This document shows positions 5,628-62,497 of a DNA stretch of 64,000 bases, piece after piece. Numbering within the stretch: the stretch's first letter is position 1; the number at the start of each line of letters is the position of its first letter. Both the position numbers and the translations under genes were made by a program. This DNA is from an uncultured Gammaproteobacteria bacterium (GTDB lineage: Bacteria > Patescibacteriota > Microgenomatia > UBA8517). The notes below the pieces were generated by a model, which saw only the letters and a list, made by a program, of their open reading frames with translations, had not been told where the DNA came from and did not search any database. The DNA lies in contig CAYRUS010000001.1 of assembly GCA_964427735.1 (NCBI GenBank), positions 226,173 through 290,172 of the forward strand, in the 5' to 3' direction.

Positions 5628-5628
5628 A

Positions 5629-6201
5629 ATGAATAGTCTTTTAAAATATTCGGCTCAGCAAAAACAAAAAGCAGATAAAATTCTAATTGAATCTGGAATT
5701 CTTGAAGAGCTGGAGGAATATGGAAAAATACATATCGCCGGTAGTTATGCAATAAATACAATGTACAGATCGGAGTTGGATATCTGGGTTATAGGAAAAT
5801 ATCACAACGAAGAGTTGGCTAGAAAGATATTTATTTCACTTTTTAACAAGAATTATTTTGACATGTTGTGTTTTGTGAAAGCTCGAAATACAACATTTGA
5901 GAAAAAAATATCGGGATTCTACATTCAACCTCATAAAAACTTAGGAAATAACAACTGGAAAATTGATATATGGTTAACAGTTAAATCACAATTTAAACCA
6001 CGATATAAAAGTGTTTTAAAGAAAATAAACAGCACAAAAGATCCAAATAGAACCAGAAATTTAATTCTCAATTTAAAAAAGCATTTTAGTCATAAGAGTA
6101 AATATAGAGGCAATCTATCGGGAGATGATTTCTACAAAGTGGTATTAGAGAACCCTAACTCAACCGTCGAAGAATTAATTGAGCTAATTAAAAGAAAGTA
6201 A
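5629..6201 (+). CDS. hypothetical protein, possible nucleotidyltransferase fold
   Basis: ATG at 5629 lies 2 nt after the upstream stop. AGSYAINTMYRSELDIWV fits the GSx9-13[DE]h[DE]h pattern of Pol-beta-type nucleotidyltransferases. Confidence 0.35.
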   Translation: MNSLLKYSAQQKQKADKILIESGILEELEEYGKIHIAGSYAINTMYRSELDIWVIGKYHNEELARKIFISLFNKNYFDMLCFVKARNTTFEKKISGFYIQPHKNLGNNNWKIDIWLTVKSQFKPRYKSVLKKINSTKDPNRTRNLILNLKKHFSHKSKYRGNLSGDDFYKVVLENPNSTVEELIELIKRK

Positions 6202-9333: not shown

Positions 9334-10563
9334 ATGCAAAAAATTATTCCTACTGGCTCTAGAGAAATTGTAAAACTTGCCTTGAATGCAATCTGGGTTA
9401 ATAAAACTCGATCCTCCCTAACATCGCTTGGCATTATTATTGGAGTGGCTTCTGTAATCTTACTAGTTTCTGTAGGGCAAGGCTTGCAAAACTATATAAC
9501 GAATCAATTTGAAGAACTTGGAAGCAATATGGTTATTGCACTGCCAGGACAAGTAGGAGGAGAAGATGGCGGGGTGAGCTTTGGGCAAGGTCCTCCTAAC
9601 TTCGCAGGAAGTAAACTTACTCTTGAACATACAAGAGATTTAAAAAACTTAGGATCTCCAATTGAATCAGTGGTTGCAAGTACAGAAATGCCAGCTTCAA
9701 TCAACTACAGAGGTGAGTCAAAATATACTACAATTGCCGGTATAACCCCTGAATACACGAAAATTAGAAACCTAAGGATTGGTGAAGGACGAAGCCTCAC
9801 TGAGTCTGACATAAATTTATCAAGAAAAGTAGTTATCATCGGAAAAGCAATCTCTGACGATTTATTCGGAGCTTCTACTGCACTAGAAAAGGATGTAACA
9901 ATAGGTGGAGATAAATTTAAAGTAATAGGTGTTTTAGATAGCATTGGAAGCCAAAGCATTGGATTTGATATAAATAATTTTGCAGCCATTCCAATTACAA
10001 CTGCACAACAATTATTTGGGACAGAATCAATCCAGGCAATAACAATCAAGGCAGAATCAAGAGAAGATATACCTGTTGTAATAAACATGACTGAAAGATA
10101 TTTAGAAAAAGTATTAGATGAGGATGATTTTTCTGTAGTGGACCAAAGTAGTTTATTGGAAACAATCAATAGTATTCTTGGAGTGGTAACTGCTGCTCTT
10201 GGAGGAATTGCAGCAATTTCATTAGTAGTAGGGGGCGTTGGTATTATGAATATCATGCTCGTATCCGTAACCGAAAGAACAAGAGAAATAGGACTAAGAA
10301 AGGCAGTAGGAGCCAAACCATCAGATATCCTCTACCAATTTATTGTTGAAGCAGTTACACTTTCAGCATTCGGTGGACTTGTTGGTATTATTATTGGGAC
10401 TGCAGGAGCCTACATTATTAATCAATTCTTTCCTGCAAGCGTTACTCTTTGGTCTGTTCTCCTAGCCTTTGGTGTATCTACTGCTGTGGGAATTATCTTT
10501 GGTGTTACACCTGCTTTAAGAGCTTCTAAGCTAAACCCAATTGAGGCATTAAGATACGAATAA
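9334..10563 (+). CDS. ABC transporter permease, FtsX/MacB-like with large periplasmic domain
   Basis: 409 aa. N-terminal TM helix, about 250-aa periplasmic region, then 3 C-terminal TM helices. Starts 2 nt after the ATPase gene. Confidence 0.75.
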   Translation: MQKIIPTGSREIVKLALNAIWVNKTRSSLTSLGIIIGVASVILLVSVGQGLQNYITNQFEELGSNMVIALPGQVGGEDGGVSFGQGPPNFAGSKLTLEHTRDLKNLGSPIESVVASTEMPASINYRGESKYTTIAGITPEYTKIRNLRIGEGRSLTESDINLSRKVVIIGKAISDDLFGASTALEKDVTIGGDKFKVIGVLDSIGSQSIGFDINNFAAIPITTAQQLFGTESIQAITIKAESREDIPVVINMTERYLEKVLDEDDFSVVDQSSLLETINSILGVVTAALGGIAAISLVVGGVGIMNIMLVSVTERTREIGLRKAVGAKPSDILYQFIVEAVTLSAFGGLVGIIIGTAGAYIINQFFPASVTLWSVLLAFGVSTAVGIIFGVTPALRASKLNPIEALRYE

Positions 10564-47851: not shown

Positions 47852-48346
47852 TTACTGAATCTCTAGTAATTCTATCTCAAAATTTAGTGTGGCATTTGGT
47901 GGTATCACTCCACCAACCCCTGAAGGTCCGTAAGCTAACTCAGGAGGTATAGTGAGTACTCTTTTCCCTCCAACTTTCATTCCTAATAAACCTTGCTCCC
48001 AACCTTGAATTACTCTACCTTCTCCAACTGTAAACACAAAAGGCTCTCCTCTCTCGTAGGAACTATCAAAAACAGTATCATCTTCAAGAGTACCTTTGTA
48101 GTGAACAACAACCGTGTCTCCTGTTTCAACTTTATCTCCTTCTCCTATTTCCAGGTCTTCTATTTTTAATTCGTTATCTTGTTCTTGATTGTTTTGATTT
48201 TGCATTTGTTCATCCTCAACAGTTATCTCAATTGGTGTATCTGTTGCAGGTGGTGATTGTACATTATTATCTCTTGTTATGAGAAATGCAATAAGAACTA
48301 TAAAGGCTACCGCTAAAATCGTTAGTGTTTTAAAGTCTTTTATCAT
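47852..48346 (-). CDS. FKBP-type peptidyl-prolyl cis-trans isomerase, membrane anchored
   Basis: N-terminal TM helix. C-terminal VVVHYKGTLEDDTVFDSSYERGEPFVFTVGEGRVIQGWEQGLLGMKVGGKRVLTIPPELAYG is a canonical FKBP domain. Confidence 0.85.
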   Translation of the reverse strand: MIKDFKTLTILAVAFIVLIAFLITRDNNVQSPPATDTPIEITVEDEQMQNQNNQEQDNELKIEDLEIGEGDKVETGDTVVVHYKGTLEDDTVFDSSYERGEPFVFTVGEGRVIQGWEQGLLGMKVGGKRVLTIPPELAYGPSGVGGVIPPNATLNFEIELLEIQ

Positions 48347-48484
48347 TATTAACTAATAGATTATCATAAATTTTTGACAGATTGAATTAGCATTAAATAG
48401 TGCTATTATTGATTAAAGGCTAACACCTTCAAACTGCTCACACATTGGCGATTGTTAATGGTCTGACTAGTAAAGTAAGGTACT

Positions 48485-49654
48485 ATGAAGCAGCTTGAAA
48501 AAATATATAATTCCACTCTTAAATTCCTTGTCCCTAAATCTCCGGATGAAACCTACATGATTGTAACTAAAGAGGCTGTAAAACTAGTAGGTGCAAAAGA
48601 TGGATCAATTTTTTTACCCAAATTAGGAAACTCTAATGAAGTCGAGAGAATTTACACAACAAATAAAGATTTATACAAAATTAAGGTTAGAAAAGATGGT
48701 GTTACAAACACAGCCTACAAATCAGGTGTTCCCAAAATGCTACAAGTTCAAGAATTAACTAATAACCATCCACAACTAAAAAAATTAGGTTACAGCTCAG
48801 ATATAACAATACCTCTTACCTACTCGCATATTACAATTGGAGTACTATCAGTCTTAAGTGGAAAAAATAAGAATTTTACAGAAGAAGAGTTAGACATACT
48901 TAGATACTTTACTCCTCTTGCCACTTTAGCCATAAGAAATTCTCATTTAACAAATGAACTTCAAAACGCAATCAATCTAAGAGATTTATTTATATCAATG
49001 GCGGCACATGAGTTTAAGAATCCTTTAAGTGTGATTTCTCTTGCAACACAAGTTATAGACAAAAGAATGGAAAAAGGAGAAGCCCCTAGAGAAAACGATA
49101 TTGTAATGCTTAGAGATAACGTTGAAAAACTTACTGCAATGATCGACGAACTAATGAATGTTTCTCATATAAAACAAGGCAAATTAAGATATGATATGGA
49201 AAAAATTAACTTAGTAGATCTCCTAAAAGATACTGTAAATGAATTCAGAAAAACCAACACTCAACATAAGATTTCTCTGAAAAAACAGATTTCTAACAAA
49301 TCATATGTAATGGCAGATAAAAACAAGTTATTTCAAGCAATTATAAATATCTTAAATAATGCAGCTAAATTTTCACCAGAAGGTTCAGCTGTAAAATGCG
49401 AGGTTGTAGAGAAAGATGGTAATTTCTATGTCAGAATAAAAGATCAAGGAGAAGGTATTCCAGAAAAAGAATTGCCTCGTATTTTTGAGCATTTTTACAG
49501 AGGAGAATCTGTGAGAAAAACTAAGTCTGGTATGGGGATTGGACTTTTCTTGGTAAAAAGCATTATCGATCATCATCAAGGAGAAATCTCCATTAAATCA
49601 AAAGTGAATAAAGGAACTACAGTAACGATTGTTTTGCCACAGTACACTTCATAA
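48485..49654 (+). CDS. cytoplasmic sensor histidine kinase with an N-terminal GAF-like domain
   Basis: H-box MAAHEFKNPLSVI, N-box NILNNAAKFS, G-boxes DQGEGIPEKE and GMGIGLFLVKSII. No TM segment. No receiver-domain gene is adjacent. Confidence 0.8.
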   Translation: MKQLEKIYNSTLKFLVPKSPDETYMIVTKEAVKLVGAKDGSIFLPKLGNSNEVERIYTTNKDLYKIKVRKDGVTNTAYKSGVPKMLQVQELTNNHPQLKKLGYSSDITIPLTYSHITIGVLSVLSGKNKNFTEEELDILRYFTPLATLAIRNSHLTNELQNAINLRDLFISMAAHEFKNPLSVISLATQVIDKRMEKGEAPRENDIVMLRDNVEKLTAMIDELMNVSHIKQGKLRYDMEKINLVDLLKDTVNEFRKTNTQHKISLKKQISNKSYVMADKNKLFQAIINILNNAAKFSPEGSAVKCEVVEKDGNFYVRIKDQGEGIPEKELPRIFEHFYRGESVRKTKSGMGIGLFLVKSIIDHHQGEISIKSKVNKGTTVTIVLPQYTS

Positions 49655-49712
49655 TTTGCAATCTTGGCTTTATTTAATTAAAAAATAAGCTAACATATTT
49701 ATTAATACATTA

Positions 49713-51068
49713 ATGAAGGAAGCTAGTAATCAGCAGACAATTCTTGAGTATCTTCTGTTTCATTCCTTAGAGGAAGCTAAACCCGCCTCATCTATATGCA
49801 GCTTTAACTCTCTAGGAACAATGGTCCAAGAATTTATTGAAAGTGCGAAAAATAATGATAATAAAGCTCCTCATATTTTTGCCTCTACAGGCAATGTACT
49901 TTCCGGAAAAACAGAACTAGGAATCAAACGAATTGCTAGATTACTTGAGTTGAATATCGAACGGTCACCAAACTTAAAATCCAATCTCGAAATTATTGTA
50001 TTAAATTGGGATAAAACCGAAGACTCAGCAGCAGAAATTCTAGTAAATGCTAAGAAAGAAAGAAGCGAAGCTAAAAAGGAAATAAGACTTCCCAACTATA
50101 ATCCTGATTTTATTCAATTAGCAGAAAATGTATCAAGAAACTATCCTGCAAAAGTAGAAGAAGAAAATAGGAATATATATGATTTGCTTATTGATAATAT
50201 ACCACAAAGGTATTTTTTTGAGGATAATGTGAGAGTTCCTGACAATGTATGGTTCTTGCGCTCTACTCGTGCTCTTCTTGATGAAATTATTTCTTTTAAC
50301 ATAAGGCTAAAGGATACAAGACAATCCAATATGGTAATGGTAATAGATGTTGTAACAGGTCATGGGGGCAAGTCAAAACGAGATTATGCTGACGGAACTT
50401 TCCTTGATTTATCTAAATCTATAAAATCCTTTGATGGAATTTCAAGGAATGATTATTCGCTATGGATGGTATCTTCAGTTGCTTCTCCTTCAATATATTT
50501 AGGTGCTTTGTATAGACATGCAATGCATCAAAGTATCACTGATAAAAAAAGAGAGCAACTATCCGAGGTTTTTGAAAGACAATTACCTGTAACAGATCAA
50601 GAAAAAGAATACGCAGGCAGTGGAGGAAGTATTCAAATGTCTGAAGAAGCTGACAATGAACTGATATCAAATCTTCTTGCTATGTCACCACGTATTAGAG
50701 AATCATCAAGATTTAGATTAGCTAATGAAATATTAACATTTAATCAACAGGAACTTATCAATTTAGCAAGTCACTTTAACTCTAGGCTTGATTCACTCAA
50801 AAAAGTTGGTACTGATCAAACATTATTAGATTTTATTGATGATGCACTAAAAGTCGGAGATATTTTGTCCATTATAGATCCTGAAGCAACAGAAAAAATG
50901 CTGAAATATGCAGCATCCAGGGTTCTGAGTTTAGCCTACTATGAATATTTGTTAAAAACGATTAATCCACACCAAGTATTTCTTGGAGTAATACGTCCAA
51001 ACATTCCTAATATCCAAAGACTAAAATCCTTTCTTAAAGAAAATAAATATCTTTTTGAAGATTCTTAA
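49713..51068 (+). CDS. hypothetical protein (451 aa), no recognisable domain
   Basis: Long ORF on the same strand, 58 nt after the histidine kinase gene. Not a response regulator (no receiver motifs). Confidence 0.45.
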   Translation: MKEASNQQTILEYLLFHSLEEAKPASSICSFNSLGTMVQEFIESAKNNDNKAPHIFASTGNVLSGKTELGIKRIARLLELNIERSPNLKSNLEIIVLNWDKTEDSAAEILVNAKKERSEAKKEIRLPNYNPDFIQLAENVSRNYPAKVEEENRNIYDLLIDNIPQRYFFEDNVRVPDNVWFLRSTRALLDEIISFNIRLKDTRQSNMVMVIDVVTGHGGKSKRDYADGTFLDLSKSIKSFDGISRNDYSLWMVSSVASPSIYLGALYRHAMHQSITDKKREQLSEVFERQLPVTDQEKEYAGSGGSIQMSEEADNELISNLLAMSPRIRESSRFRLANEILTFNQQELINLASHFNSRLDSLKKVGTDQTLLDFIDDALKVGDILSIIDPEATEKMLKYAASRVLSLAYYEYLLKTINPHQVFLGVIRPNIPNIQRLKSFLKENKYLFEDS

Positions 51069-51098
51069 ATTATACTTCTTGCCATATACAAAACTAAA

Positions 51099-51674
51099 CT
51101 AAGTAATTACTACTGTTAATATCTTAACCAATTGTCCATAAAAATTTCTGATCAGCCATACTAAGTAAATACCCAAAACAGGTAAAATTATATAGCTTTC
51201 TACCCAATTCCCGGTTTTTATGCGTAATTTTTTAAAAGGAGGAAATCCAACATCCAAATTAATAGGAAAAAGCAAAGGAACTCCTTCTTTTGTAAGACAA
51301 TCTGCAATAAGATGAGAAAAATATCCGATCATTATACTTGCAAGAAGTATGTCGGGATTTACAAATTCAGGATTAAAAAAAATAGGTAAAATCCATTGCA
51401 AAAATTTATAAATTAAATACATCCCTAAAAGTGAATGAGTTATTGTTCTGTGTTTATAAAATAATCTTCTCAAGACCTTGCCTACAAAATCTCCGCCAGG
51501 TAAGAATTCCCATAATCTATTTCCAGCTTGATCCAGGTCAGGTATCATGCCACCAACAATATTCCCTATAAGCGAAGCAAAAAGTGTATAAAGGCTTAAA
51601 CTCTCCGGAGGGAATAATACCGCAGAAGTAACTAAAAATGTAAAAGCAAAAGCATCATGAGTTCGGGCAGTCAT
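51099..51674 (-). CDS. membrane-bound metal-dependent hydrolase, YdjM/DUF457-like
   Basis: 191 aa. MTARTHDAF...IPDLD...SHLIAD pattern of His/Asp residues on TM helices, typical of DUF457. Confidence 0.55.
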   Translation of the reverse strand: MTARTHDAFAFTFLVTSAVLFPPESLSLYTLFASLIGNIVGGMIPDLDQAGNRLWEFLPGGDFVGKVLRRLFYKHRTITHSLLGMYLIYKFLQWILPIFFNPEFVNPDILLASIMIGYFSHLIADCLTKEGVPLLFPINLDVGFPPFKKLRIKTGNWVESYIILPVLGIYLVWLIRNFYGQLVKILTVVIT

Positions 51675-51716
51675 AATTTATTTTAACACTTAAATATTAT
51701 ATGCGATTATGCTTAA

Positions 51717-52787
51717 ATGGAGAGACTTTTAGGGTTTCTGCTTTTTAAAAATAAAATGAAAAAAATTTTTAGCCAATATTTAATAACTTTTTTTTCATTT
51801 TTCACTCTTTTATCTTTGCTTATTGACTCCTACAGAAACCCAAATTCTTTTGAAAAATATTTTTATATTGATTCTAAGTTTGTTTTATGGGTTTTTGTTG
51901 TTGTGGCTTTAGTCTATAAAATCAGAAAAATGGAATTTCCAAAATATTTAATTAAATTTAATAACTACTTTTTATTGTTATTTTCTGTGTTTTTTTCTTT
52001 ATTATCTGTAATAAGAATATTATATAGCGAAGCTTATCTATATACACAGACGGGAATATTTCAGCCGAATCTGTTTTATGTTCTTATTGGAAGCACCATC
52101 TTGTTTATCTTGTCAATTAAGAAAGACTGGTTAGTAAATAACTACAAGAGTTTAATCTTTTTTTTACCGTTTTTGATAATGTCATTGCTTATATCAGTAT
52201 GGATATCTCACTTTGAATATTTTAACCAAATTACCAAGGATGACCATATTATCGAATGGGGACAACTCGTAGCCCTGGTTTTGTCTGGAGTCTTATCACT
52301 ATTAATTGCAAATAATATAAGAAAAACCTCAAAATTAGTTTCCGTTTTTTATATCTTTCTCGGAATATTTATGTTATTTGTCGCAGGAGAAGAAATCTCC
52401 TGGGGGCAAAGGATTTTAGGGATTGATACACCAGAAAAAATCACATCTATAAATCTACAAGAAGAATTAACTTTACATAATCTGTATTTCATTGAACCAC
52501 TTGTATGGATTGGATATCTATCATTAAGTCTTTATGGTTTATTTGCTAAATATTTGTTAACTTCTTTCAAATTATTATCTGACACTATCAAAGAGTATCT
52601 TGTTCCGCCATGGTTTACAAAATCATTTTTTCTTTTTTCGACCATTTATTATCTTAACGTAAGTCCATTTGTTCCTGCTCGTATACCTCCGGAATGGTCC
52701 GAGGTCGCCGAATTAATGTTGTTTATGGGCTTATTTTTCTTTGTTAATGAAAATTACATAAGATCAAAAAAGCATAAAAATTATTGA
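51717..52787 (+). CDS. polytopic membrane protein, hypothetical
   Basis: 356 aa with about 10 TM helices. An alternative start lies at ATG 51756. Confidence 0.45.
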   Translation: MERLLGFLLFKNKMKKIFSQYLITFFSFFTLLSLLIDSYRNPNSFEKYFYIDSKFVLWVFVVVALVYKIRKMEFPKYLIKFNNYFLLLFSVFFSLLSVIRILYSEAYLYTQTGIFQPNLFYVLIGSTILFILSIKKDWLVNNYKSLIFFLPFLIMSLLISVWISHFEYFNQITKDDHIIEWGQLVALVLSGVLSLLIANNIRKTSKLVSVFYIFLGIFMLFVAGEEISWGQRILGIDTPEKITSINLQEELTLHNLYFIEPLVWIGYLSLSLYGLFAKYLLTSFKLLSDTIKEYLVPPWFTKSFFLFSTIYYLNVSPFVPARIPPEWSEVAELMLFMGLFFFVNENYIRSKKHKNY

Positions 52788-52790
52788 TAC

Positions 52791-53051
52791 TTGCCACTTC
52801 CCAAAACCAAAAACACTCTGATAAAATCTACCTTTATGATAATTAATGCACAGCAAAAGAGAGATAAAATTAAAGAATTAAAGAGAAAACTCGAAGAGTA
52901 TGAACAAAAATTAGCCCGTGAGATGATTGGTTATAGGGGAGTCGTGCATGAAAGTGCATCTAGTGAAATAAAACACGCAAAAGTTATGGTCTTCAAGGCA
53001 ATGGTTACAGGGCTTCAGGAAGAAATAAAAAAATTAGAACAAGAAAAATAG
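52791..53051 (+). CDS. small hypothetical coiled-coil protein
   Basis: 86-aa ORF, 4 nt after the upstream gene. Charged and helical. Confidence 0.3.
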   Translation: MPLPKTKNTLIKSTFMIINAQQKRDKIKELKRKLEEYEQKLAREMIGYRGVVHESASSEIKHAKVMVFKAMVTGLQEEIKKLEQEK

Positions 53052-53055
53052 TTTA

Positions 53056-55287
53056 TTAGATGTTAACAGCTTTTATTCTTAAAGAGTTTGCAACTACTGA
53101 AATTGAACTAGCTGCCATTGCAAATGCAGCTAGAGCTGGGTTTAACAACAAACCAAAGAATGGATAAAGTACTCCCATTGCAACCGGAATTAAAACAACG
53201 TTATAACCAAATGCCCAGAAAAGATTTTGTTTAATTACTGAAAAAGTCTTCCTACTAAGTTGTAAAGAAGAATTAACACTTCTCAAATCTTTATTTAACA
53301 AAGTAATTGCTGCAGATTCCATTGCCACATCAGTTCCCGTTCCCATAGCAATTCCCACATCAGCTGCAGCAAGTGCTGGAGCATCATTAATTCCGTCACC
53401 AACAAAAGCAACAACCTTATTCTGACCATCTTTAAGTTCTTTAACTTTTTGCGCTTTTTCTCCTGGTAAAACTTCTGCAAATATATTATCAATACCAACT
53501 TTTTTTGCCACAGCTTTAGCGGTTCTGTTGTTGTCACCCGTCATCATCCAGACTTCAATTCCCTTAATTTTTAATGACGACACCATATCTTTGGCAGTTG
53601 GTTTTAGAGTATCTGCAATACCAATAACACCAATCAGTTCTTTATTAGAAGAAAGGAAAACAACTGTTTTCCCTTCTTCCTCAAGTTTTTGCACCATTTT
53701 TTCGTGCTCTTTAATTTCAACTCTTTTCTCTGTCATTAAATTTCTATTGCCTAATGTATATTTTATTTTTCCAATCTTTCCTTCAATTCCTTTACCTGCA
53801 ATTGCTTTAAAATCGATAGCTTTTTTTAGCTTAATCTTTTCATCTTTTGCTTTTGTTAAAATTGCTTCTCCCAATGCATGCTCTGATCCCTGCTCTAAGG
53901 AAGCTGCAATTTGTAAAGCACTCGATTTGTTGGAAAATTCGATTACATCAGTAACAGAAGGTTTACCTCTTGTTAATGTTCCGGTTTTATCAAAAATTGC
54001 CACGCTTACTTTATTTGCAATTTCCAAAGCTTGTGCATCCCTTATTAATATCCCGTGTTCTGCTCCTTTTCCTGTCCCCACCATAATAGCTGTAGGAGTT
54101 GCCAAACCGAGAGCACAAGGACATGCGATCACAAGAACTGCAATCATATTACTAAAAGCTAATCCAAATGCCTCACCAACAGGTCCGAATACATACCAGA
54201 GTACGAAAGTAGCTACTGCTATCATTAAAACCGCTGGTACAAAATATCCTGATACTACATCTGCAAGTCTTTGGATCGGAGCTCTAGAATTCTGTGCTTC
54301 AGATACCATCTTAACAATATTGGCGAGCATAGTGTCTGAACCAATCTTAGTTGCCTCGAATATAAAAGAACCAGTTTTATTAAAAGTGGCACCTATTACC
54401 TGATCCCCTACAACTTTATCTACGGGAATTGATTCACCAGTAACCATAGACTCATCTATTGAACTGGTGCCTTCTTTTATAACTCCGTCAACAGGTACTT
54501 TTTCACCTGGACGTACACGAAGTAAATCTCCTTCTTTAACTTCCTCTATTGGTACATCAATTTCTTCTCCATTTCTAATCACTCTAGCGGTTTTTGCCTG
54601 CAGTTGGAGGAGTTTTTTAATAGCGTCACTAGTGTGCAGTTTTGCTCGAGCTTCAAGATATCTGCCAAGTAAAATTAATGTAATAATAACTGCTCCTGTA
54701 TCTAAGTACATTGCCATTGGTATACCTAAGACATCAAATATTCTAGGGAAAATTATTGCTATGGCAGAAAAAAAGTATGCAGCTGAAGTACCCATTGCAA
54801 TTAAAGTATCCATATTTGCAGTTCTGTTTTTTAGTCCAGACCAGGTTGCTAGATAAAACTCTTTACCTGCCCAAAACTGAACAATAGTAGCCAAATACAG
54901 AAGAAAATATTCATTTGTAAATGAAACCGGAACAAAAGGAAACCATTCTGGAAAGCTTCCTAGCATCAGAACTGTACTTAAAATAATAGAAACTACAACT
55001 TTATTTTTTAGTCTTTTAAGTTCAGTAAGTTTTGTTTCTTCTTTAATCTGATCTGCCGTTTTTACTTCATCTTTTTCAAGGATTATTGCCTCGTATCCTG
55101 CATCCTTTACAGCATTACGAAGTGCATCATTATTTATATTCTCACTAGTAACTACTGTAGCCTGTTCACCTGCATAATTAACTTGAGCTGAAATTACTCC
55201 GTGTGTTCTAGTTAGTTTTCTCTCAATTATATTTGCACAGCTTGCGCAATGCATCCCTACTATTGGAAAAGATTTTTTTTGGTTCAT
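53056..55287 (-). CDS. copA: copper-translocating P1B-type ATPase
   Basis: N-terminal [15 protein letters not shown], transmembrane CPC ([11 protein letters not shown]), phosphorylation site DKTGTLT, and hinge [10 protein letters not shown]. Confidence 0.9.
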
Positions 55288-55288
55288 A

Positions 55289-55657
55289 TTAATTAACTAA
55301 CAATTTTCCGTGATACATATTCATTCCACACTGGAATCTATACTCCCCTGATTCTTTTGGTTTAATTTCGATAGTAACAGGTTTATTCATTGGCAAATAT
55401 TTCTTAATTTTAAAATCTGGGATTACTATTTCTTCTAAACAACTCGAGGGATCTTTTCTTATAAACGTAAGCTCTACTTTTTCTCCTTTATTAAGTTTAA
55501 TATTTTCAGGTTTATAACCCCCTTCTACAATAATCTCTAAATTTCCATTTCTTTCCGTAGCTTCAGCGAAGGAGGTTTTTTTCCCAAAGAAAAACCAATA
55601 GATAAAAACAATTAGTCCTGATCCAAGAGATATAACAATAATTTTATCAATACCCAT
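55289..55657 (-). CDS. membrane-anchored cupredoxin-like domain protein
   Basis: 122 aa. TM helix, then a beta-rich domain ending with C-x7-C-G-M-x2-H ([10 protein letters not shown]), a putative Cu site. Starts 2 nt after csoR and ends 2 nt before copA. Confidence 0.55.
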
Positions 55658-55659
55658 AT

Positions 55660-55932
55660 TTAAAGTTTCTTCATCACTTTCATTACTTCATCAATTACTT
55701 CTATATCATTACCGGCTTTTATGGAGTTAGCCACGCAAGACTCCATATGATTTTTAAGAATTAGATGATCAGCCTTTTTCAAAGCAGATTGTACAGCCAA
55801 AGATTGGTGTACAACGTCAATGCAATATTCACCAGTTTCTAGCATCTTGATTACTTTCTCTAAATGACCTTTTGCGATCTTTAATCTATGCATTGCCTTC
55901 TTTTGATTTAGTTCAAATTTTCTATTGTCCAT
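55660..55932 (-). CDS. csoR: CsoR/RcnR-family metal-sensing transcriptional repressor
   Basis: 90 aa. YCIDVVHQSLAVQSAL with the conserved Cys, plus the H...C pair of the CsoR family. Confidence 0.75.
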   Translation of the reverse strand: MDNRKFELNQKKAMHRLKIAKGHLEKVIKMLETGEYCIDVVHQSLAVQSALKKADHLILKNHMESCVANSIKAGNDIEVIDEVMKVMKKL

Positions 55933-56014
55933 TATTCCTATTGACTTATCCCCTAGGGGGGGATATATAATTCTATTATCGACTATTGCTATTTGTCAAG
56001 TTAAAATACAAAAA

Positions 56015-57010
56015 ATGAATACAGTACTCTTAGCACTCGTGACTGGTCTCTTTACAGGCGGCATTTCCTGTTTTGCAATACAGGGCGGACTGTTAGCTAC
56101 ATCGGTGGCAAATCAACAAAAAGACACACAAAAACTCTCAATTATATTTTTCCTTATAAGCAAACTGATAGCATATACCATTTTAGGCTTTATTCTTGGT
56201 ACTATTGGTTCTTCACTTGTAATCACTCCAAAAACTCAAGGTGTATTACAAATATTTGCAGGGATAGTAATGCTAATTGCTGCAGCAAGAATTATTGATT
56301 TGCATCCTGTCTTTAGAAAATTTGTTATCACTCCGCCTAAATCTCTATACCGTCTAGTTAGGAAAAGTTCAAAGATGGATAGCTTTTTTGCTCCATCTAT
56401 TCTTGGATTTTCAACGGTTCTTATTCCATGCGGCATAACGCAAAGCATGATGCTTTTAGCAATTGCCGCAGGAAACGGATTTTGGGGAGCTTTAATAATG
56501 GCATCATTTACTATTGGTACTTCACCACTATTCTTTACATTGGGAATGGCATCAAAAAAGATGCTTGACAATAAAAAGCTCTCAATACTTGCTGCACTAA
56601 TTATTTTTTATCTTGGAATTTCTTCACTAAATACAGGTCAAATTTTGCGCGGTTCCAATCATACTTTACAAAATTACTGGCTTGCTGCCACTGGAAATCT
56701 TGAACCAGAACAAGATGTAGGAAAAGTTGCCGGTGTTAAAGATGGAAAACAAGAGGCAACAATTGATGTTATAACCGGCGGCTATAAATCAGAAAGTACA
56801 ACTTTAAAAGCAGGTATTCCGGTTAAATTAACATTGAGTACTAATAACACTAGGGGATGTTCCAGAGCATTTACCATTCCTGAATACAATATTATGGAAG
56901 TACTGCCGGAAACAGGTGAAAAAATTGTTGAATTTACACCAACCAAACAAGGTAGGCTTGTTTATACATGTAGTATGGGAATGTATACTGGCTATTTTGA
57001 CGTAATATAA
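56015..57010 (+). CDS. polytopic membrane protein with C-terminal cupredoxin-like domain
   Basis: The start is placed at ATG 56015 (MNTVLLALVTG) to avoid overlapping divergent csoR. 6-7 TM helices with PCG within a TM segment. The C-terminal about 110 aa is paralogous to 55289..55657 (GCSRAF...YTCSMGMYTG). Confidence 0.5.
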   Translation: MNTVLLALVTGLFTGGISCFAIQGGLLATSVANQQKDTQKLSIIFFLISKLIAYTILGFILGTIGSSLVITPKTQGVLQIFAGIVMLIAAARIIDLHPVFRKFVITPPKSLYRLVRKSSKMDSFFAPSILGFSTVLIPCGITQSMMLLAIAAGNGFWGALIMASFTIGTSPLFFTLGMASKKMLDNKKLSILAALIIFYLGISSLNTGQILRGSNHTLQNYWLAATGNLEPEQDVGKVAGVKDGKQEATIDVITGGYKSESTTLKAGIPVKLTLSTNNTRGCSRAFTIPEYNIMEVLPETGEKIVEFTPTKQGRLVYTCSMGMYTGYFDVI

Positions 57011-57204
57011 TGGTTAAAATATATAAAATTGAAGGAATGGATTGCGATTCCTGTGCACAGATGCTTGAGTTGGATTTTGAAGATGAAGGCATTGAGGCAA
57101 AATGCGAATATACAACAGAAGAGCTTACTGTCATTTCAGAAAATGTAAATGACAATAAAGTTAAAGAAATAGTTGAGAATGCAGGCTATAAAGTAGAAGA
57201 ATAA
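57010..57204 (+). CDS. copZ: copper chaperone CopZ (HMA domain)
   Basis: 64 aa. GMDCDSCAQ is the MxCxxC HMA motif. The start ATG overlaps the upstream stop (TAATG). Confidence 0.8.
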   Translation: MVKIYKIEGMDCDSCAQMLELDFEDEGIEAKCEYTTEELTVISENVNDNKVKEIVENAGYKVEE

Positions 57205-57205
57205 A

Positions 57206-57430
57206 TTACTCAGCAAAATTTACTTTGTGTTTTCTTTTTAGTAAATCTTTTGCAATTTTCTCTGCTTCATTTTTTATATCTCCGTTACTTTTAGTTTTCT
57301 CAACGACTTTGAATTTATTATTAAAGTAATCGATACTTAAGATGATCTCTTCACCATTACCATCGCCAACAAAATATTCTGCTTTATTAAAAATAAATTT
57401 TTTTATGTATTTGGTTTTTATATTCACCAC
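57206..57430 (-). CDS. small hypothetical protein
   Basis: 74-aa ORF with no recognisable motif. Confidence 0.3.
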   Translation of the reverse strand: MVNIKTKYIKKFIFNKAEYFVGDGNGEEIILSIDYFNNKFKVVEKTKSNGDIKNEAEKIAKDLLKRKHKVNFAE

Positions 57431-57651
57431 CTCCTTTGCAGAACTTTGGTTTCTTAGAGTTTGGAATTTGAGGGTTTATAAGAAGAAAGCACAATCCTGC
57501 AAACCAAGCTTAGCTTGACTTACAGCAACAGGAAAAAGTAAAGGTATTGTATTTTATTTCAAACATTAAGTTATATTAAGCCAATTAATATCAGTTTTTC
57601 AATTACGTATTTTAATTTTTTATTATCCATTTAAAGTTAAATAAATATTAC

Positions 57652-57680
57652 CCAAACTGGGGGTAGTGGCATTTTTTATA
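57652..57680. repeat. 29-bp perfect direct repeat, copy 1: a relic copy of the secA 3' end including its own stop codon
   Basis: CCAAACTGGGGGTAGTGGCATTTTTTATA is identical to 58392-58420. On the minus strand it encodes YKKCHYPQFG followed by TAA. Confidence 0.8.
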
Positions 57681-57711
57681 TCCTCAATTAGCTATCTACT
57701 TGATCATCTTT

Positions 57712-58380
57712 TTATCCGTAAAACCCATGACATACTTCTAAACCTCTCATATATTTTTCTCGATCATTCTTTTTGTTAATTTCCTGCTCAACATACTTTC
57801 TATTCTCATAAAGTGCATCTCCAACTCCTAAGAAAAATCTGGACACTAACTCAAAAGTTGGACCATTAATTCCATCTGGTTTTATATCATCCGCATTTTG
57901 AAATCCATCAATATATCTAAAGAATTTTTCTAAGGCCTTATCTGTACCAGCTTGACTTATATCGACCAGCAAAATAGATCCATGTAAACCTGTTCTTCTG
58001 TCATGATCCACAGGGAGACCTCTTTGAATCATCAACTGAGAAACTCTATTTATTATATTTTGCTTTATTTTTTCTAGTTTCTCCTTGTCTCTATTGTAAG
58101 CTTCCATTTTTTCTCTATAATCGGATACAGGTTTATTATCTGGGGTGAAAAACTCTACTTTACCACTGGCAGTCAATTCAGTGCTATCATAAAAAATTAC
58201 TGTATCTAAATCTGAGGTTTGTTTTTCCACACCTTTCTTCCTGGAACCAAAGAATGCTATTCCCTTTACTTGAGGAATCCCAGTTTGAATTTCTCGAATG
58301 TTATCACGCAAAAACTTCATGTGTCCCAAAGAATCCTTGGAAGGAACACTTTTTATTATTTCACCTTTGTCTTCACCCAT
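57712..58380 (-). CDS. nucleotidyltransferase-domain protein, bracketed by 29-bp direct repeats
   Basis: 222 aa. IAFFGSRKKGVEKQTSDLDTVIF matches the GSx9-13DhDh motif. It starts 8 nt after the secA stop. Confidence 0.5.
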   Translation of the reverse strand: MGEDKGEIIKSVPSKDSLGHMKFLRDNIREIQTGIPQVKGIAFFGSRKKGVEKQTSDLDTVIFYDSTELTASGKVEFFTPDNKPVSDYREKMEAYNRDKEKLEKIKQNIINRVSQLMIQRGLPVDHDRRTGLHGSILLVDISQAGTDKALEKFFRYIDGFQNADDIKPDGINGPTFELVSRFFLGVGDALYENRKYVEQEINKKNDREKYMRGLEVCHGFYG

Positions 58381-58387
58381 GTTTTAT

Positions 58388-61156
58388 TCATCCAAACTGG
58401 GGGTAGTGGCATTTTTTATATTTTTTACCTGAACCGCATGGACATGGGTCATTTCTACCAACTTTTTCTTTTCTTATATTGCCATCTACATCCTTTTTTA
58501 CATTAGGTTGAATAACTTGCTTATTACTTCCTGTTTCTTGGGTAAATGCCTGAGCTCCTGCCATAGCTGCAAAATCAGAACCTCCTGCTAATCCCGTAGC
58601 ATCAGCTAAATCTTCGTTTGTTCTTGCCTGAGCAAGATCAATTTCTGGAGATTGAGAAGCAACTTGAATTCTGAAAATTCTTCTTGATAATTCTGAATCA
58701 ATTTTATCAATCAACCCCTCGAAAAGTTGGTATGCTTCATTTTTGAATTCGTTTATTGGATCTCTTTGGGCATATCCTCTAAGCCTAACCCCTTCTCGCA
58801 ATGAATCTATTTGGTCAATGTGTTCTACCCAATGATGATCAATTGAACCTAAATATGCATATTTTTCTACCTCCCTCATTACTTCACTACCTAATTGTTT
58901 TTCTCGACTTTCATATACCTTGTCAATAATTTCAGTCATTTTTTCGTGTAACTCTTTAGAATCTGATTTTTTCAATTCTTTTTTAATTTTATCAATCGAA
59001 GACTCATCAAAAGGAATAATCTCCATTAGTCCCGGTATTAATCTGTCCATATCCACGGAATCCTCTCCATTGACATTTGTAGACGTCAAAAGAATTCCAT
59101 CAACTTGGCGTTCCAACTTTTCTTTAATTTCATTCTTGAGATTATCTGATTCCAAAACTCTTCTTCTAAGTTTGTATATAATTTCTCGTTGTTGATTAGC
59201 CACATCATCGTACTCCACAACAGATTTTCTAGCGTCAAAATGAAAACCTTCAACTTTTATTTGTGCCTGCTCAATAGCACGGCTAATCATTTTGTTTTCG
59301 ATTGGCTGATCTTCTGGCAGCCTCAATCTGTCCATAAGTGAGCTTATTTGCTCTCCTCCAAAAATTCTCATTAAATCATCCTCCAGTGACAAATAAAAAC
59401 GAGTAGAACCGGGGTCACCTTGTCTTCCAGCACGTCCTCTAAGCTGATTATCAATACGCCTTGACTCATGTCTTTCAGTTCCAACTACATGAAGTCCACC
59501 AGCTTTTATTACTTTTTGGTGGTCCTCTCTCCATTTCTTGTATTCCTTGGTATTTTTATGATCTTCAATATCAACACCAGGTGGCATATCCGGAGGTGTT
59601 CCTCCTAAAACAATATCAACACCACGACCAGCCATATTTGTTGCAACTGTTACAGCACCTGGCTTACCTGCTTCTGCAATTATTAAAGCCTCTTTTTCGT
59701 GATTTTTTGCATTTAGAGTGTTATGAGGAATCTTTTTTCTTTTAAGATATTCATGAATAATTTCATTTTTTTCAATTGATGTTGTACCAACCAAAACAGG
59801 CTGACCTTTTTTGTGTTTTTCTTCGATTTCTGCAACTATTGCACCGTATTTAGCCCTTATTGTTTTGTAAACTATATCTGGTTTGTCATCACGTTTGCTT
59901 TCTCGATGAGTTGGAATTACAACTACATCAAGATCATATATTTTTTTGAATTCTTCAGCTTCGGTAGCTGCAGTTCCTGTCATACCTGCCAAAACGTCAT
60001 ACATCCTAAAGTAATTTTGGAAAGATATAGTTGCTAGTGTCTTACTTTCTTGCTGAATCTTAACTCCTTCTTTTGCTTCTACTGCCTGATGAAGACCATC
60101 ACTCCATCTTCTACCATGCATAAGACGACCTGTAAATTCATCAACAATTATTACCTGATCTTCTTTAACTACATAATTGCGATCTTTTAAATAAATTGTT
60201 TTTGCTTTTAATGAGTTTTCAATATGATGTATTGCTTCATAATCATCTTCATAAAGATTTTTGTAATTAAGTATTTTTTCTACTCGTGCAATTCCCCGCT
60301 CTGTTAAAGAAGCACTCCTTGATTTTTCGTCAACTGTATAATCTGTATCTGGGTTTAACTTTTCAACAACATCTGCAAATTTGTAATACTTTTCCGTAGG
60401 CTCCATGTCTGGAGCTGAGATAATAAGCGGTGTTCTAGCTTCGTCAATTAAGACAGAATCGACTTCGTCTACAATCGCAAAATAATGCCCTCTTTGGACC
60501 ATTCGATCAAGAGAATTAACCATATTATCTCGAAGATAATCAAAACCAAATTCGTTATTTGTTCCATAAGTTATATCCGCTGCATATGCTTCTTTTCTTT
60601 CAACAGGCTTAAGATGAGCAAGCCTCTCGTCTCCATAGCTTGTGTCATTGTGTTTACTGTCATAGATATACGAGGTCATTTCCTGAGCAATAGCTCCTAC
60701 ACTCATTCCCAACAATTCAAATATTGGCGCATTCCAACCAGCATCACGACGAGCCAAATAATCATTTACAGTAACTAAGTGGACACCTTTTCCTGTTAAC
60801 CCATGCAGATACAAAGGAAGAACTGCAGAAAGAGTTTTACCCTCACCTGTTTTTTGCTCTGCGACTTTCCCTTCCGAAAGTGCAATTCCGGACATTATCT
60901 GCACATCATAATGACGCATTCCAAGCTGTCTCCAAGATGCTTCCCTTGCCACTGCAAAAGCTTCTGGAAGCAAATCATCTAAAGATTCACCTTTTTCAAG
61001 ACGCTTTTTAAATTCAGCTGTTTTTTTAGCAAAATCTCCAGCTTTTAACTTTTTTACTTTTTTTTCTAATGCGTTAACCTCCTCAACTCTTTTGGCTAGT
61101 CGGTCTATTTCTCTTTGGTTAACATCTAAAACTTTCGTAAATAAATTCTTAAACAT
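58388..61156 (-). CDS. secA: preprotein translocase ATPase SecA
   Basis: 922 aa. Walker A region, DEAD-like motor, long helical scaffold, and a C-terminal zinc-binding tail CPCGSGKKYKKCH. Confidence 0.95.
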   Translation of the reverse strand: MFKNLFTKVLDVNQREIDRLAKRVEEVNALEKKVKKLKAGDFAKKTAEFKKRLEKGESLDDLLPEAFAVAREASWRQLGMRHYDVQIMSGIALSEGKVAEQKTGEGKTLSAVLPLYLHGLTGKGVHLVTVNDYLARRDAGWNAPIFELLGMSVGAIAQEMTSYIYDSKHNDTSYGDERLAHLKPVERKEAYAADITYGTNNEFGFDYLRDNMVNSLDRMVQRGHYFAIVDEVDSVLIDEARTPLIISAPDMEPTEKYYKFADVVEKLNPDTDYTVDEKSRSASLTERGIARVEKILNYKNLYEDDYEAIHHIENSLKAKTIYLKDRNYVVKEDQVIIVDEFTGRLMHGRRWSDGLHQAVEAKEGVKIQQESKTLATISFQNYFRMYDVLAGMTGTAATEAEEFKKIYDLDVVVIPTHRESKRDDKPDIVYKTIRAKYGAIVAEIEEKHKKGQPVLVGTTSIEKNEIIHEYLKRKKIPHNTLNAKNHEKEALIIAEAGKPGAVTVATNMAGRGVDIVLGGTPPDMPPGVDIEDHKNTKEYKKWREDHQKVIKAGGLHVVGTERHESRRIDNQLRGRAGRQGDPGSTRFYLSLEDDLMRIFGGEQISSLMDRLRLPEDQPIENKMISRAIEQAQIKVEGFHFDARKSVVEYDDVANQQREIIYKLRRRVLESDNLKNEIKEKLERQVDGILLTSTNVNGEDSVDMDRLIPGLMEIIPFDESSIDKIKKELKKSDSKELHEKMTEIIDKVYESREKQLGSEVMREVEKYAYLGSIDHHWVEHIDQIDSLREGVRLRGYAQRDPINEFKNEAYQLFEGLIDKIDSELSRRIFRIQVASQSPEIDLAQARTNEDLADATGLAGGSDFAAMAGAQAFTQETGSNKQVIQPNVKKDVDGNIRKEKVGRNDPCPCGSGKKYKKCHYPQFG
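58392..58420. repeat. 29-bp perfect direct repeat, copy 2: the actual 3' end of secA
   Basis: Identical 29-mer. It encodes the last 10 codons of SecA (YKKCHYPQFG) before the TGA stop. Confidence 0.8.
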
Positions 61157-61342: not shown

Positions 61343-62497
61343 ATGAGGAAGTTTTTTGGAGCATTGCTAATATTTACTTTAATACTTTTAATTCCTCCAA
61401 TTGTAACTGCACAAAGTCCTCAATTAATTTCAAATGAAGATGTTGTTGTGATTCCAGCAGATGAAACAGTAAATAGAGACTTATTTGCTGCCTCAAAACG
61501 GGTAGAAATTTTTGGAAATATTAATGGAGATATTTTTGTTGCAGGCGGAACAATTAATATAGCAGGAAACATAGAAGGGAATGCCTACATTGCAGGTGGA
61601 GAGGTAAATATATCAGGAAACATCAATGGCAATACTTATCTTTCAGCAGGACAATCAACAATTTCAGGAACCCTTGAAAACACATTAACTGTAATGACAG
61701 GTAACTTGCAAATTTCTGAGCAGGCAACTATTGCAGGACCTGTTTCAGTAGCTGCAGGAAATGCTAATATCTCCGGGACTATTAATGACAATTTAAACAT
61801 CGCTTCCGGAAACACTACAATCACCGGAGAAATCAATGGTGATACTGTTGCAGCGACTGGAGATCTTCGCATAACTCCCCAAACACATATTGCAGGTTAT
61901 TTAATGCTTTGGAGTAGTCCTGAAATTTCGATAGACCAGAATGCAAATATCGAAGGCGATATTATTCACAAAACTATGCAATCTGATCTTGACCAAAAAG
62001 AATGGCTAGCTGCTATTACTACTTTTAATCTTTACTGGAAAATAGCAAGTTTAATTTCACTTTTTATAGTGGGATTAATATTAATAAAATTATTCCCTAT
62101 ACATCTAACCAAAAATGTAGAAGAATTAATGACAAATCCCGTAAAATCCTTTGTCATTGGTTTTTTAATTATTTTATTAGCACCTTTTATAATCCTTGCT
62201 TTATTAGTGAGTTTGATAGGAATTCCTCTTGCATTAATTTTAATTCCTCATTACTTTGTTTTACTTTACCTAGGTAAACTTCCTATTATATTTTGGCTTG
62301 GAGGAACACTTAGAAAAGATAAAGATTATAACAATTATTTATCATTAATCTTTGGAACGCTTGTTTATTTTGTATTAATTTTCATTCCTTTTTTTGGAAT
62401 GATTATAAACTGGATAGCAGTTACTTTTGGAATTGGAGCATTGGCATTATCCGTTCAAGGAGTGTATAAGAATGCACGGAACAAAAAGATTGTTTAG
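61343..62497 (+). CDS. secreted beta-helix-like repeat protein (bactofilin/polymer-forming-like GN/I-x-G repeats) with a 4-TM C-terminal domain
   Basis: Signal peptide, then about 9 repeats of GNINGD.F.AGG.INI.GNIEGNAYIAGG type, then four TM helices. Confidence 0.45.
   Translation: MRKFFGALLIFTLILLIPPIVTAQSPQLISNEDVVVIPADETVNRDLFAASKRVEIFGNINGDIFVAGGTINIAGNIEGNAYIAGGEVNISGNINGNTYLSAGQSTISGTLENTLTVMTGNLQISEQATIAGPVSVAAGNANISGTINDNLNIASGNTTITGEINGDTVAATGDLRITPQTHIAGYLMLWSSPEISIDQNANIEGDIIHKTMQSDLDQKEWLAAITTFNLYWKIASLISLFIVGLILIKLFPIHLTKNVEELMTNPVKSFVIGFLIILLAPFIILALLVSLIGIPLALILIPHYFVLLYLGKLPIIFWLGGTLRKDKDYNNYLSLIFGTLVYFVLIFIPFFGMIINWIAVTFGIGALALSVQGVYKNARNKKIV

Follow-up and report, generated by a model that had tools for sequence, protein, structure and literature searches.

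Integrative elements that target the 3' ends of genes include phage 21 and e14 in icd, streptococcal integrative and conjugative elements (ICEs) in fda, rpsI and rpmG, genomic islands in guaA, and islands that target tRNA and tmRNA genes. Here we describe an arrangement reminiscent of these at the 3' end of secA in a 64,000-nt stretch of DNA from a Woesebacteria-like genome of the Microgenomates (Patescibacteria) (contig CAYRUS010000001.1 of assembly GCA_964427735.1; hereafter the window), in which an exact 30-nt direct repeat of the secA end brackets a gene for a 222-aa nucleotidyltransferase (NTase). On balance we consider it probable that the 710-bp interval between the repeats is a small gene cassette, devoid of a recombinase gene, that was inserted site-specifically into the last ~30 nt of secA, and our analysis suggests that the secA 3' end of Microgenomates is a docking site of small mobile gene cassettes. 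In full-text literature searches we came across neither an account of attachment at the secA 3' end nor one of cassette arrays in Patescibacteria; a mention of secA in a paper on phage WO was irrelevant.

On the minus strand of the window, secA is followed by 7 nt, the 222-aa NTase gene, 30 nt and a second secA tail with its own stop (Table 1). A sequence-only reading of this DNA had recognised the duplicated tail as a 29-mer; the repeat is 30 nt long with a spacing of 740 nt, and the 29-mer occurs exactly twice in the 64 kb (57652-57680 and 58392-58420), compared to zero occurrences expected by chance, as no match was found in 100 dinucleotide-preserving shuffles even when up to three mismatches were allowed. 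When the last 190 nt of the secA region served as query in a sensitive search of the window, no third tail copy emerged, not even a degenerate one. The coding strand of secA ends in ...TAT AAA AAA TGC CAC TAC CCC CAG TTT GGA TGA, and the Pfam domain set of the encoded protein is complete (SecA_DEAD, SecA_PP_bind, P-loop_SecA, SecA_SW and SEC-C, the latter at residues 901-919). The distal copy reads GGA TAT AAA AAA TGC CAC TAC CCC CAG TTT GGG TAA (G-Y-K-K-C-H-Y-P-Q-F-G), in agreement with the earlier account of a YKKCHYPQFG terminus followed by TAA. Both copies specify the same C-terminal residues and differ in the last codon and stop (GGA TGA versus GGG TAA), and since an in-frame TGA precedes the distal copy, the latter is non-coding and lies outside any gene. 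The open reading frame (ORF) list also upheld the statement that the NTase gene, 8 nt after the secA stop, is the sole ORF between the repeats.

The two junctions differ in what surrounds them. At the proximal copy, the GGATGA that contains the secA stop lies 7 nt ahead of the NTase ATG and may act as a ribosome-binding site. The distal copy, by contrast, harbours a weak terminator-like hairpin that overlaps its stop, whereas the proximal copy has GGATGA in place of GGGTAA and lacks the T-run. The distal copy is most likely the original secA end, and the description of it as a displaced copy is probably right. The ends of the insert bear no inverted repeat, and Pfam detected no transposase domain in the NTase, indicating that the insert is not a transposon or insertion sequence. 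A 12-nt inverted repeat (11/12 complementary) does pair the secA tail (ATCCAAACTGGG on the plus strand, 58390-58401) with a site inside the NTase gene (58279-58290), probably by chance.

To collect relatives, we used the C-terminal 400 aa of SecA as query against GTDB genomes, one for each species, and obtained 80 loci, all from Microgenomates/Patescibacteria. Scanning of 82 secA loci with a six-frame search for KKCHYP-like peptides and with an nhmmer model of the repeat unit revealed that, besides the window, about 12 of the 82 repeat their own secA tail one to three times further downstream on the secA strand (Table 1). The peptide scan was positive for L004, L012, L020, L022, L031, L056, L068, L083 and the window (a match in L009 looks like chance), and the unit hidden Markov model (HMM) added L027, L032 and L058, along with a weak match in L076. 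Although equal upstream lengths and both strands were searched with the HMM, all matches at E<=0.01 that cover the motif part of the unit (see below) fell downstream of secA and on the secA strand. The copies are exact or near-exact in some genomes (24/24 in L020) and decayed in others, the window having the freshest duplication of all (30/30). Importantly, in 14 distal copies from 10 genomes the homology to secA sets in 0-4 nt ahead of the codon for the first Lys of KKCH (4 nt in the window, where the Tyr codon is included), a fixed onset that is not expected from random duplication breakpoints.

Successive tail copies lie 56 nt to 2.4 kb apart, and the one to three genes between them point the same way as secA; this applies to every cassette gene of L004, L012, L020, L022, L031 and L068, with up to three tail copies per locus. 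Their cargo encodes a Fic protein, a BrnT/BrnA-like pair with a shikimate-dehydrogenase-like protein, an EamA transporter, a 23S-IVS protein, an exonuclease-like protein, TspO, an Hsp20-like protein, a VapBC-like pair and several unknown membrane proteins. As a control for the repeats around NTase homologues (see below), the 300 nt upstream and the 150 nt downstream of every ORF of 150-400 aa in the loci were compared with each other; 7 of 393 score at least 20, several of the top cases being genes located just 3' of secA between copies of their own secA tail. One pair of loci resembles an occupied and an empty site, as the gene that follows the L004 array shares 35% identity with the one directly behind secA in L049.

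Most array genomes also share a conserved 27-nt motif that is not derived from secA (TGTGGTACCCTATTTAGCTGACACTTC) ahead of the tail copy, next to unrelated cargo and across candidate phyla, in loci from Amesbacteria, Levybacteria, Gottesmanbacteria and Woesebacteria. Where motif and tail meet, 9 nt on either side (the last of the motif and the first of the tail) constitute an imperfect inverted repeat around a 2-nt centre (TGACACTTC-AA-GAAGTGCCA), in which 74% of cells pair compared to 27-55% in slid controls. Two other identities for these sequences were discarded: the motif is not a decayed piece of upstream secA, since about 9 of 27 positions match by eye, which is chance level, and the unit is not a structured RNA or known RNA family, given the absence of an Rfam match in the window region and in five array loci and of a consensus fold in 10 aligned units (RNAalifold). 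In Amesbacteria, a short palindrome (GGCTATACATAGG) and a conserved block (TTAAGAACAAAC) also come after the tails. What the window has in common with the arrays is the target, the orientation, a junction at the Tyr-Lys-Lys codons and a single, compact gene that runs in the same direction as secA.

Table 1. Features of the secA region in the window (window coordinates) and secA loci of other genomes with extra tail copies (coordinates of each locus)
Feature	Position	Strand	Description
secA, 922 aa	58388..61156	-	ORF list; C-terminus ...CPCGSGKKYKKCHYPQFG, then TGA at 58388-58390
Proximal 30-nt copy	58392..58421	-	Coding strand ATATAAAAAATGCCACTACCCCCAGTTTGG; last 10 codons of functional secA; would be attL-like junction
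Left junction	58381..58391	-	Proximal copy only; A of GGA codon, TGA stop, ATAAAAC, then NTase ATG
NTase, 222 aa	57712..58380	-	ORF list; ATG 8 nt after secA stop; Pfam NTP_transf_2, E 1.3e-6
Spacer, 30 nt	57682..57711	-	NTase stop to distal repeat (cassette 3' end); AAAGATGATCAAGTAGATAGCTAATTGAGG; unique in window
Distal 30-nt copy	57652..57681	-	Would be attR-like junction; continues G TAA (stop 57648-57650)
Weak terminator-like hairpin	57649..57665	-	TACCC-CCAGTTT-GGGTA then ATATTTATTT; consensus scan; putative function
Stronger terminator-like hairpin	57497..57525	-	13 pairs; 3' of distal copy, ahead of 74-aa ORF (57206-57430)
Context region, ~9.3 kb	48347..57651	both	Distal copy to FKBP gene; probably outside cassette
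L004	7144-9470		Woesebacteria, among window's closest relatives; three extra copies
L012	7225-9241		Amesbacteria; two extra copies
L020	7144-9945		Amesbacteria; two extra copies, one exact (24/24)
L031	7114-8905		Amesbacteria; one full copy and one partial
L022	7135-8458		Levybacteria; one extra copy
L058	8849-8900		Gottesmanbacteria; unit-model match
L083	1276-1690		Daviesbacteria; two extra copies
L027	8590-8642		Unclassified metagenome-assembled genome (MAG); one extra copy
L032	9530-9578		Unclassified MAG; one extra copy
L056	7198-7400		Unclassified MAG; one extra copy
L068	10042-10077 and 11342-11372		Unclassified MAG; one extra copy
L076			Patescibacteria MAG; weak match only

How could such an arrangement arise? 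In the scheme that we favour, the cassette would have carried its own secA tail, from the Tyr-Lys-Lys codons of the SEC-C domain to the final Gly, together with its own stop. A crossover near the upstream edge of the shared core would then have joined the body of secA (attB-like) to the tail of the cassette (attP-like), leaving the C-terminus YKKCHYPQFG unchanged and shifting the original tail, its TAA stop and the weak terminator hairpin 740 bp downstream. The NTase gene, being co-oriented, 8 nt past the new stop and without a separate promoter signal, would most likely be expressed from a secA read-through transcript that ends at the displaced terminator; co-transcription with secA is expected because the gene lies between secA and the original terminator. 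The recombinase would act in trans, and a host-encoded enzyme is the natural candidate, as with Xer-dependent modules or integron cassettes. Site-specific recombination of this type is the most economical reading and would account for the regenerated frame with a changed last codon and stop, the fixed junction, the conserved arm and the tandem arrays. The scheme also makes sequence predictions: from the occupied left (...CCCCAGTTTGGATGAATAAAACATGGG) and right (...GCTAATTGAGGATATAAAAAATGCC...CAGTTTGGGTAATATTT) junctions of the window, an empty site should read GGTAAAAAATATAAAAAATGCCACTACCCCCAGTTTGGGTAATATTTATTT and a circle or tandem junction GCTAATTGAGGATATAAAAAATGCCACTACCCCCAGTTTGGATGAATAAAACATGGG.

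Several observations weigh against this scheme. A single-sequence phmmer search, whose sensitivity is limited, found neither a tyrosine (XerD-like) nor a serine (Hin-like) recombinase among 1369 ORFs of the window and the 82 loci (within 6 kb of secA). An empty site in a close relative was not found either, as nothing closer than ~70% SecA identity emerged from the protein, genome and metagenome collections searched, and a circular or excised form was not seen in this barely sampled lineage. The distal junction of the window has no significant match to the 27-nt motif or the inverted repeat, the motif and unit HMMs matching the tail part only, so that the window may be a divergent or degraded member of the array family or the product of an unrelated event; its spacer, AAAGATGATCAAGTAGATAGCTAATTGAGG, resembles the motif only faintly (TAGCTAA; GATAGCTAATTGA versus GGTAGCTATTTGA of L056). 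For the unit itself, the covariation of the inverted repeat is weak and only suggestive (18 of 500 shuffles reach it), RNAalifold gave no consensus fold, and some of the intervals in other genomes span a mere 56-179 nt, which a simple capture model does not predict. Finally, the window NTase lacks the C-terminal helix of its family (the last ~32 profile positions) and ends in five unrelated residues, as the alignment confirms, and in a second sample (contig L085, see below) the sequence departs from that of the window 12 nt past the NTase stop (from 57700 downward, inside the spacer), with no tail copy in the remaining 32 nt. The truncation implies that the right end of the cassette was rearranged or remodelled at some time; such remodelling may be the cause of the missing 27-nt motif and perhaps also of the different L085 flank. 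Of the integration that regenerates secA, as proposed in the sequence-only reading, the one-gene insert and the intact C-terminus stand, and the recurrence at the same codon in other genomes lends strong indirect support to site specificity, while the recombinase, the empty site in a close relative and the excised form were not found; the cognate integrase that it anticipated is absent from the window and the 82 loci as far as XerD-like and Hin-like proteins are concerned.

The strongest competitor is a one-off illegitimate insertion, by template switching, microhomology-mediated break-induced replication or staggered-break fill-in, in which foreign DNA with the NTase gene would have entered in the course of repair or replication, resumption 30 nt upstream of the exit point duplicated the tail and no dedicated system was involved. 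The lack of a recombinase nearby and of the conserved motif at the window junction would be in line with such an event, as would the truncated NTase and the different 3' flank in the other sample, which suggest a messy rearrangement. Other single genes flanked by direct repeats occur as well, including the high-scoring ORFs of the control (among them those in L058 and L039) and an NTase homologue in L003. Yet, this target recurs in about 12 other genomes, where the junction again falls on the same codon. Moreover, a break at random is seldom expected to leave the reading frame, the exact C-terminal residues and a stop intact and, in addition, to put a co-oriented gene 8 nt downstream. We hold a one-off insertion to be unlikely.

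Somewhat more doubtful still is that a larger integrative element with an integrase (prophage, ICE or integrative and mobilizable element), having used the secA tail as attB, was deleted down to the NTase and two att copies, a history that would be a variant of the favoured scheme. Integration at a 3' end with regeneration of the gene is classic for tyrosine-integrase elements, the truncated NTase and rearranged right end fit decay, and ~9 kb of non-syntenic DNA lie beyond the distal copy. However, att copies that are identical at 30 of 30 positions argue for a recent event over long decay, and the interval is one tightly packed gene without pseudogene debris. Moreover, the intervals of other genomes (0.06-2.4 kb, 1-3 genes) are integrase-less and occur in tandem, and viral contigs, phage records and plasmid records yielded no element that matches.

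An assembly artefact is very improbable. A 30-mer equals k-1 for graphs with k=31, and a chromosome with a single tail might have been threaded with a separate NTase molecule or strain variant; the repeat length of exactly 30 is suggestive in this regard. We compared the window with other assemblies of the locus. Logan contig L001 (run SRR7082966, 7.6 kb) matches the window base for base across secA, both copies, both junctions, the NTase and the downstream genes; it was built independently, yet L001 and the window may derive from the same reads. An NCBI contig of 759,860 nt, presumably that of the source genome, also contains the window NTase sequence. Logan contig L087 from the sibling run SRR7082976 opens precisely on base 57681, where the distal 30-mer begins, and then follows the window without a difference for 5.5 kb. 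Its break may reflect how assembly graphs treat repeats of length k-1, or else a true branch such as an empty-site variant; it would be compatible with excision but could be technical. A contig from a different sample (L085; ENA ERZ23366319 NODE_267564, 730 nt, coverage 1.4) encodes the same NTase with 3 single-nucleotide polymorphisms (K5P). L085 begins with the junction of secA tail and NTase (AGTTTGG|ATGAATAAAAC; the junction AGTTTGG|ATGAATAAAACATGGG is common to it and the window), so that a second population backs the left junction; for the right junction, support comes from the SRR70829xx data only, and L085 disagrees downstream of the NTase. Nevertheless, the 30-nt spacer between NTase and distal repeat is unique sequence that ties the NTase end to the repeat, so the right junction must exist in reads, and diverged arrays in many MAGs cannot be k-mer artefacts. 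Taken together, misassembly is unlikely. The end of L085 (690-730) resembles a diverged inverted copy of the NTase 3' end around the palindrome GATGATCATC, and its reverse complement would encode ...CHGCCNSLPR*; with 32 nt at a coverage of 1.4x, this flank may represent either a convergent paralogue or the outcome of a rearrangement. Logan contigs with the upstream gene (ends of L100/L101) break in both runs at the same point in the middle of secA (~residue 505-513).

Least credible of all is a segmental duplication of ancient date, which would make the NTase gene a resident neighbour of secA transmitted by vertical descent, for despite the secA-NTase junction of L085 in a second population, no NTase follows secA in any of the 82 relatives, other family members reside in unrelated contexts and the distal copy is undiverged. 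Indeed, the nearest genomes have no NTase after secA, and thus do not show the conserved core gene with a diverged distal copy that the sequence-only reading had named as the mark of such a duplication.

If the preferred scheme of site-specific cassette insertion is extended to the arrays, the secA 3' end in Microgenomates of the Candidate Phyla Radiation (CPR) could constitute a cassette-capture system, a possibility that we put forward tentatively and regard as short of probable. Circular recombinase-less cassettes, composed of a ~27-nt arm and a SEC-C tail, would be inserted serially in trans, and the constitutively transcribed, essential secA would drive the cargo, in an integron-like manner on a housekeeping gene instead of attI/intI. 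The window cassette would be a recent, partly degraded member. A phage or plasmid vector was rejected as carrier, since tblastn gave no NTase match in phage or plasmid records and both the junction-spanning unit pattern and the window junction are absent from viral contigs, as is the spacer AAAGATGATCAAGTAGATAGCTAATTGAGG; five motif-only pattern matches lack the tail and are due to chance.

The cargo gene encodes a rare and uncharacterised, C-terminally truncated enzyme of the polymerase-beta type. It bears the signature GS...DLD (G45-S46 ... D57-x-D59) followed by a helical C-terminal domain, and the AlphaFold model, a confident one (pLDDT 82.6), shows an alpha/beta NTase domain plus a helical domain. 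Its family comprises 625 cluster representatives at E<=0.001, which are typically 220-270 aa long and share a conserved terminal helix (YPQTIxEAxKYF); P0001, a K5P variant with 221 of 222 residues identical to the window NTase, matches the profile up to position 211 of 243. The protein scores 18.1 bits against the MntA family, far below the NCBIfam cut-off of 60, and has no HEPN partner gene, its neighbours being secA and the 74-aa ORF, the latter without a family match. NCBIfam aminoglycoside nucleotidyltransferase (ANT) families do not match the window NTase and reach only E>0.006, and that for a homologue. A PDB profile search yielded LinB at a non-significant E of 0.078, and a PADLOC match to PDC-S09 is also below threshold. 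No PDB fold match was obtained at E<=0.001; the best Foldseek hit is ANT(4') (E 0.034, TM 0.18), and the top matches, all non-significant, are ANT(4')/KNTase, MNT and AadA.

Could the NTase itself be the mobile unit, as in the homing of a selfish cassette that the sequence-only reading had offered as an alternative? We discarded this as the principal explanation: homologues in L002, L003, the contig of P0004, L093 and L097 sit in unrelated contexts and not beside secA, and insertions at secA elsewhere carry unrelated genes. Homing is not supported because it is the site that recurs, not the gene. Some homologues have repeats of their own. The L003 homologue (40% identical) is flanked by a 35-nt direct repeat (1657-1691 / 2566-2600, 83% identity), far above the shuffled expectation, and the L002 homologue by a borderline 39-nt repeat (99-137 / 1079-1117) with its first copy placed inside the upstream ORF, at the 3' end; by eye, neither resembles the secA units. 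In L093 (1724-3337), P0126 (273 aa), the closest profile-level NTase homologue outside the first four, adjoins a Y1 (IS200/IS605-type) transposase gene and has no flanking repeat.

The nearest SecA proteins come from Woesebacteria MAGs, with identities of 60-65% when the C-terminus is compared and of up to 71% at full length. Searches for closer relatives with the SecA C-terminus (genomes and proteins) and a degenerate YKKCHYPQFG pattern (metagenome and viral contigs), and look-ups of the exact SecA, the 74-aa ORF and a 384-aa protein (see below), returned 60-71% SecA identity at best or the same population only. A comparison with related genomes, which the earlier reading had proposed for finding a single-tail site, gave a partial answer: most relatives have a single secA tail and the NTase is absent from the position after secA, as are the 74-aa ORF and the copper-resistance cluster described below, but the closest of them is only ~70% identical in SecA.

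In these relatives (SecA 60-71% identical) the gene order is methyltransferase, secA, 0-2 genes and FKBP, the conserved upstream neighbour being a spermidine-synthase-like methyltransferase; FKBP follows secA directly in L009 and L010, and two genes intervene in L099. In the window, the gene for this FKBP isomerase lies at 47852-48346. About 9.5 kb after the window secA are non-syntenic with relatives, and the repeat brackets only the first 0.74 kb. The remainder, the context region of Table 1, encodes a GAF histidine kinase, unknown proteins of 451 and 356 aa, YdjM, a copper cluster (CopA-type ATPase, cupredoxin protein, CsoR-type repressor, DsbD_2-cupredoxin fusion and HMA protein) and the 74-aa ORF, with no recognisable recombinase or further tail copy bounding it. 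On the other side of secA, a gene at 61343-62497 (+) encodes a 384-aa protein that combines a signal peptide and C-terminal membrane helices with beta-solenoid repeats (FapA/DUF8173, weak); it lies between the methyltransferase gene and secA, where most relatives have no room, their methyltransferase being close upstream of secA.

Three observations concern other loci. A 79-nt direct repeat in L058 (8914-8992 / 10353-10433) surrounds an AAA-ATPase-like gene 1.7 kb downstream of secA. In L039 (minus strand, ~4884-5723) a 51-nt repeat with a perfect palindrome flanks a gene. The secA of L099 (2269-4978) was called as two overlapping ORFs (529 and 389 aa), suggesting a frameshift or a sequencing error in this Logan contig.

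If our reading is correct, the zinc-binding tail of SecA would join the short list of conserved chromosomal docking sites, with a protein-coding gene as target, and CPR/Patescibacteria, whose genomes are reduced and contain few recognised mobile elements, would have a means to gain and express accessory genes such as toxin-antitoxin modules, transporters and nucleotidyltransferases while leaving an essential gene undisturbed. The 27-nt arm, the fixed Lys-Lys junction and the lack of a linked recombinase turn the search for the host enzyme that recognises the site into a tractable question, and such an enzyme, if found, could serve as a site-specific integration tool for organisms currently without genetics. 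Should the window case be only a one-off duplication-insertion, it would be a minor curiosity; the interest resides mainly in the wider phenomenon of cassettes at secA tails.

How does the locus compare with the systems described to date? The cargo shares the polymerase-beta fold and GS...DxD motif with MntA (of HEPN-MNT type VII toxin-antitoxin systems) and with ANT/Lnu enzymes, and the two-domain layout of NTase and helical domains with ANT(4')/KNTase, but it scores far below the cut-offs of these families, has no HEPN partner and is truncated compared to its own family. With Xer-dependent elements and dif modules (integrative mobile elements exploiting Xer, IMEX, and the pdif modules of Acinetobacter plasmids), the secA cassettes have in common that they are small, recombinase-less modules with sites of ~28 nt, moved in those systems by a host recombinase in trans; by analogy, Xer-like movement in trans would be the most economical account of integrase-less cassettes. 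The window 30-mer nevertheless shows no 11-6-11 dyad by eye, a short inverted repeat at the junction being confined to the canonical units elsewhere, and pdif modules are flanked by inverted site pairs as opposed to the direct repeats seen here.

Like integrons, the secA loci feature small, mostly single-gene and recombinase-less cassettes that are co-oriented with an expressed upstream gene, form tandem arrays in relatives, end in a conserved unit resembling a recombination site and carry miscellaneous accessory and toxin-antitoxin cargo. Unlike integrons, they have no intI-like gene by the array (the genes upstream of secA encode the FapA/DUF8173 protein and the methyltransferase), the unit forms no attC-type hairpin (RNAalifold) and the aligned units display no GTTRRRY core by eye. 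Their platform is the coding end of an essential gene, of which 24-30 nt are duplicated per cassette, and the window has one cassette. With elements that target 3' ends, they share the direct repeat of the gene end around the insert, the replacement end with its own stop, the displaced original end and the highly conserved target, and also the tandem accretion that leads to several att copies (here in L012, L020 and L004). They differ in that the insert is a single 669-bp gene without integrase, excisionase or transfer genes, with inserts of 0.06-2.4 kb elsewhere. While defining features of both are lacking, the behaviour of the secA cassettes is closest to that of integrative elements that regenerate a 3' end and to that of integrons.

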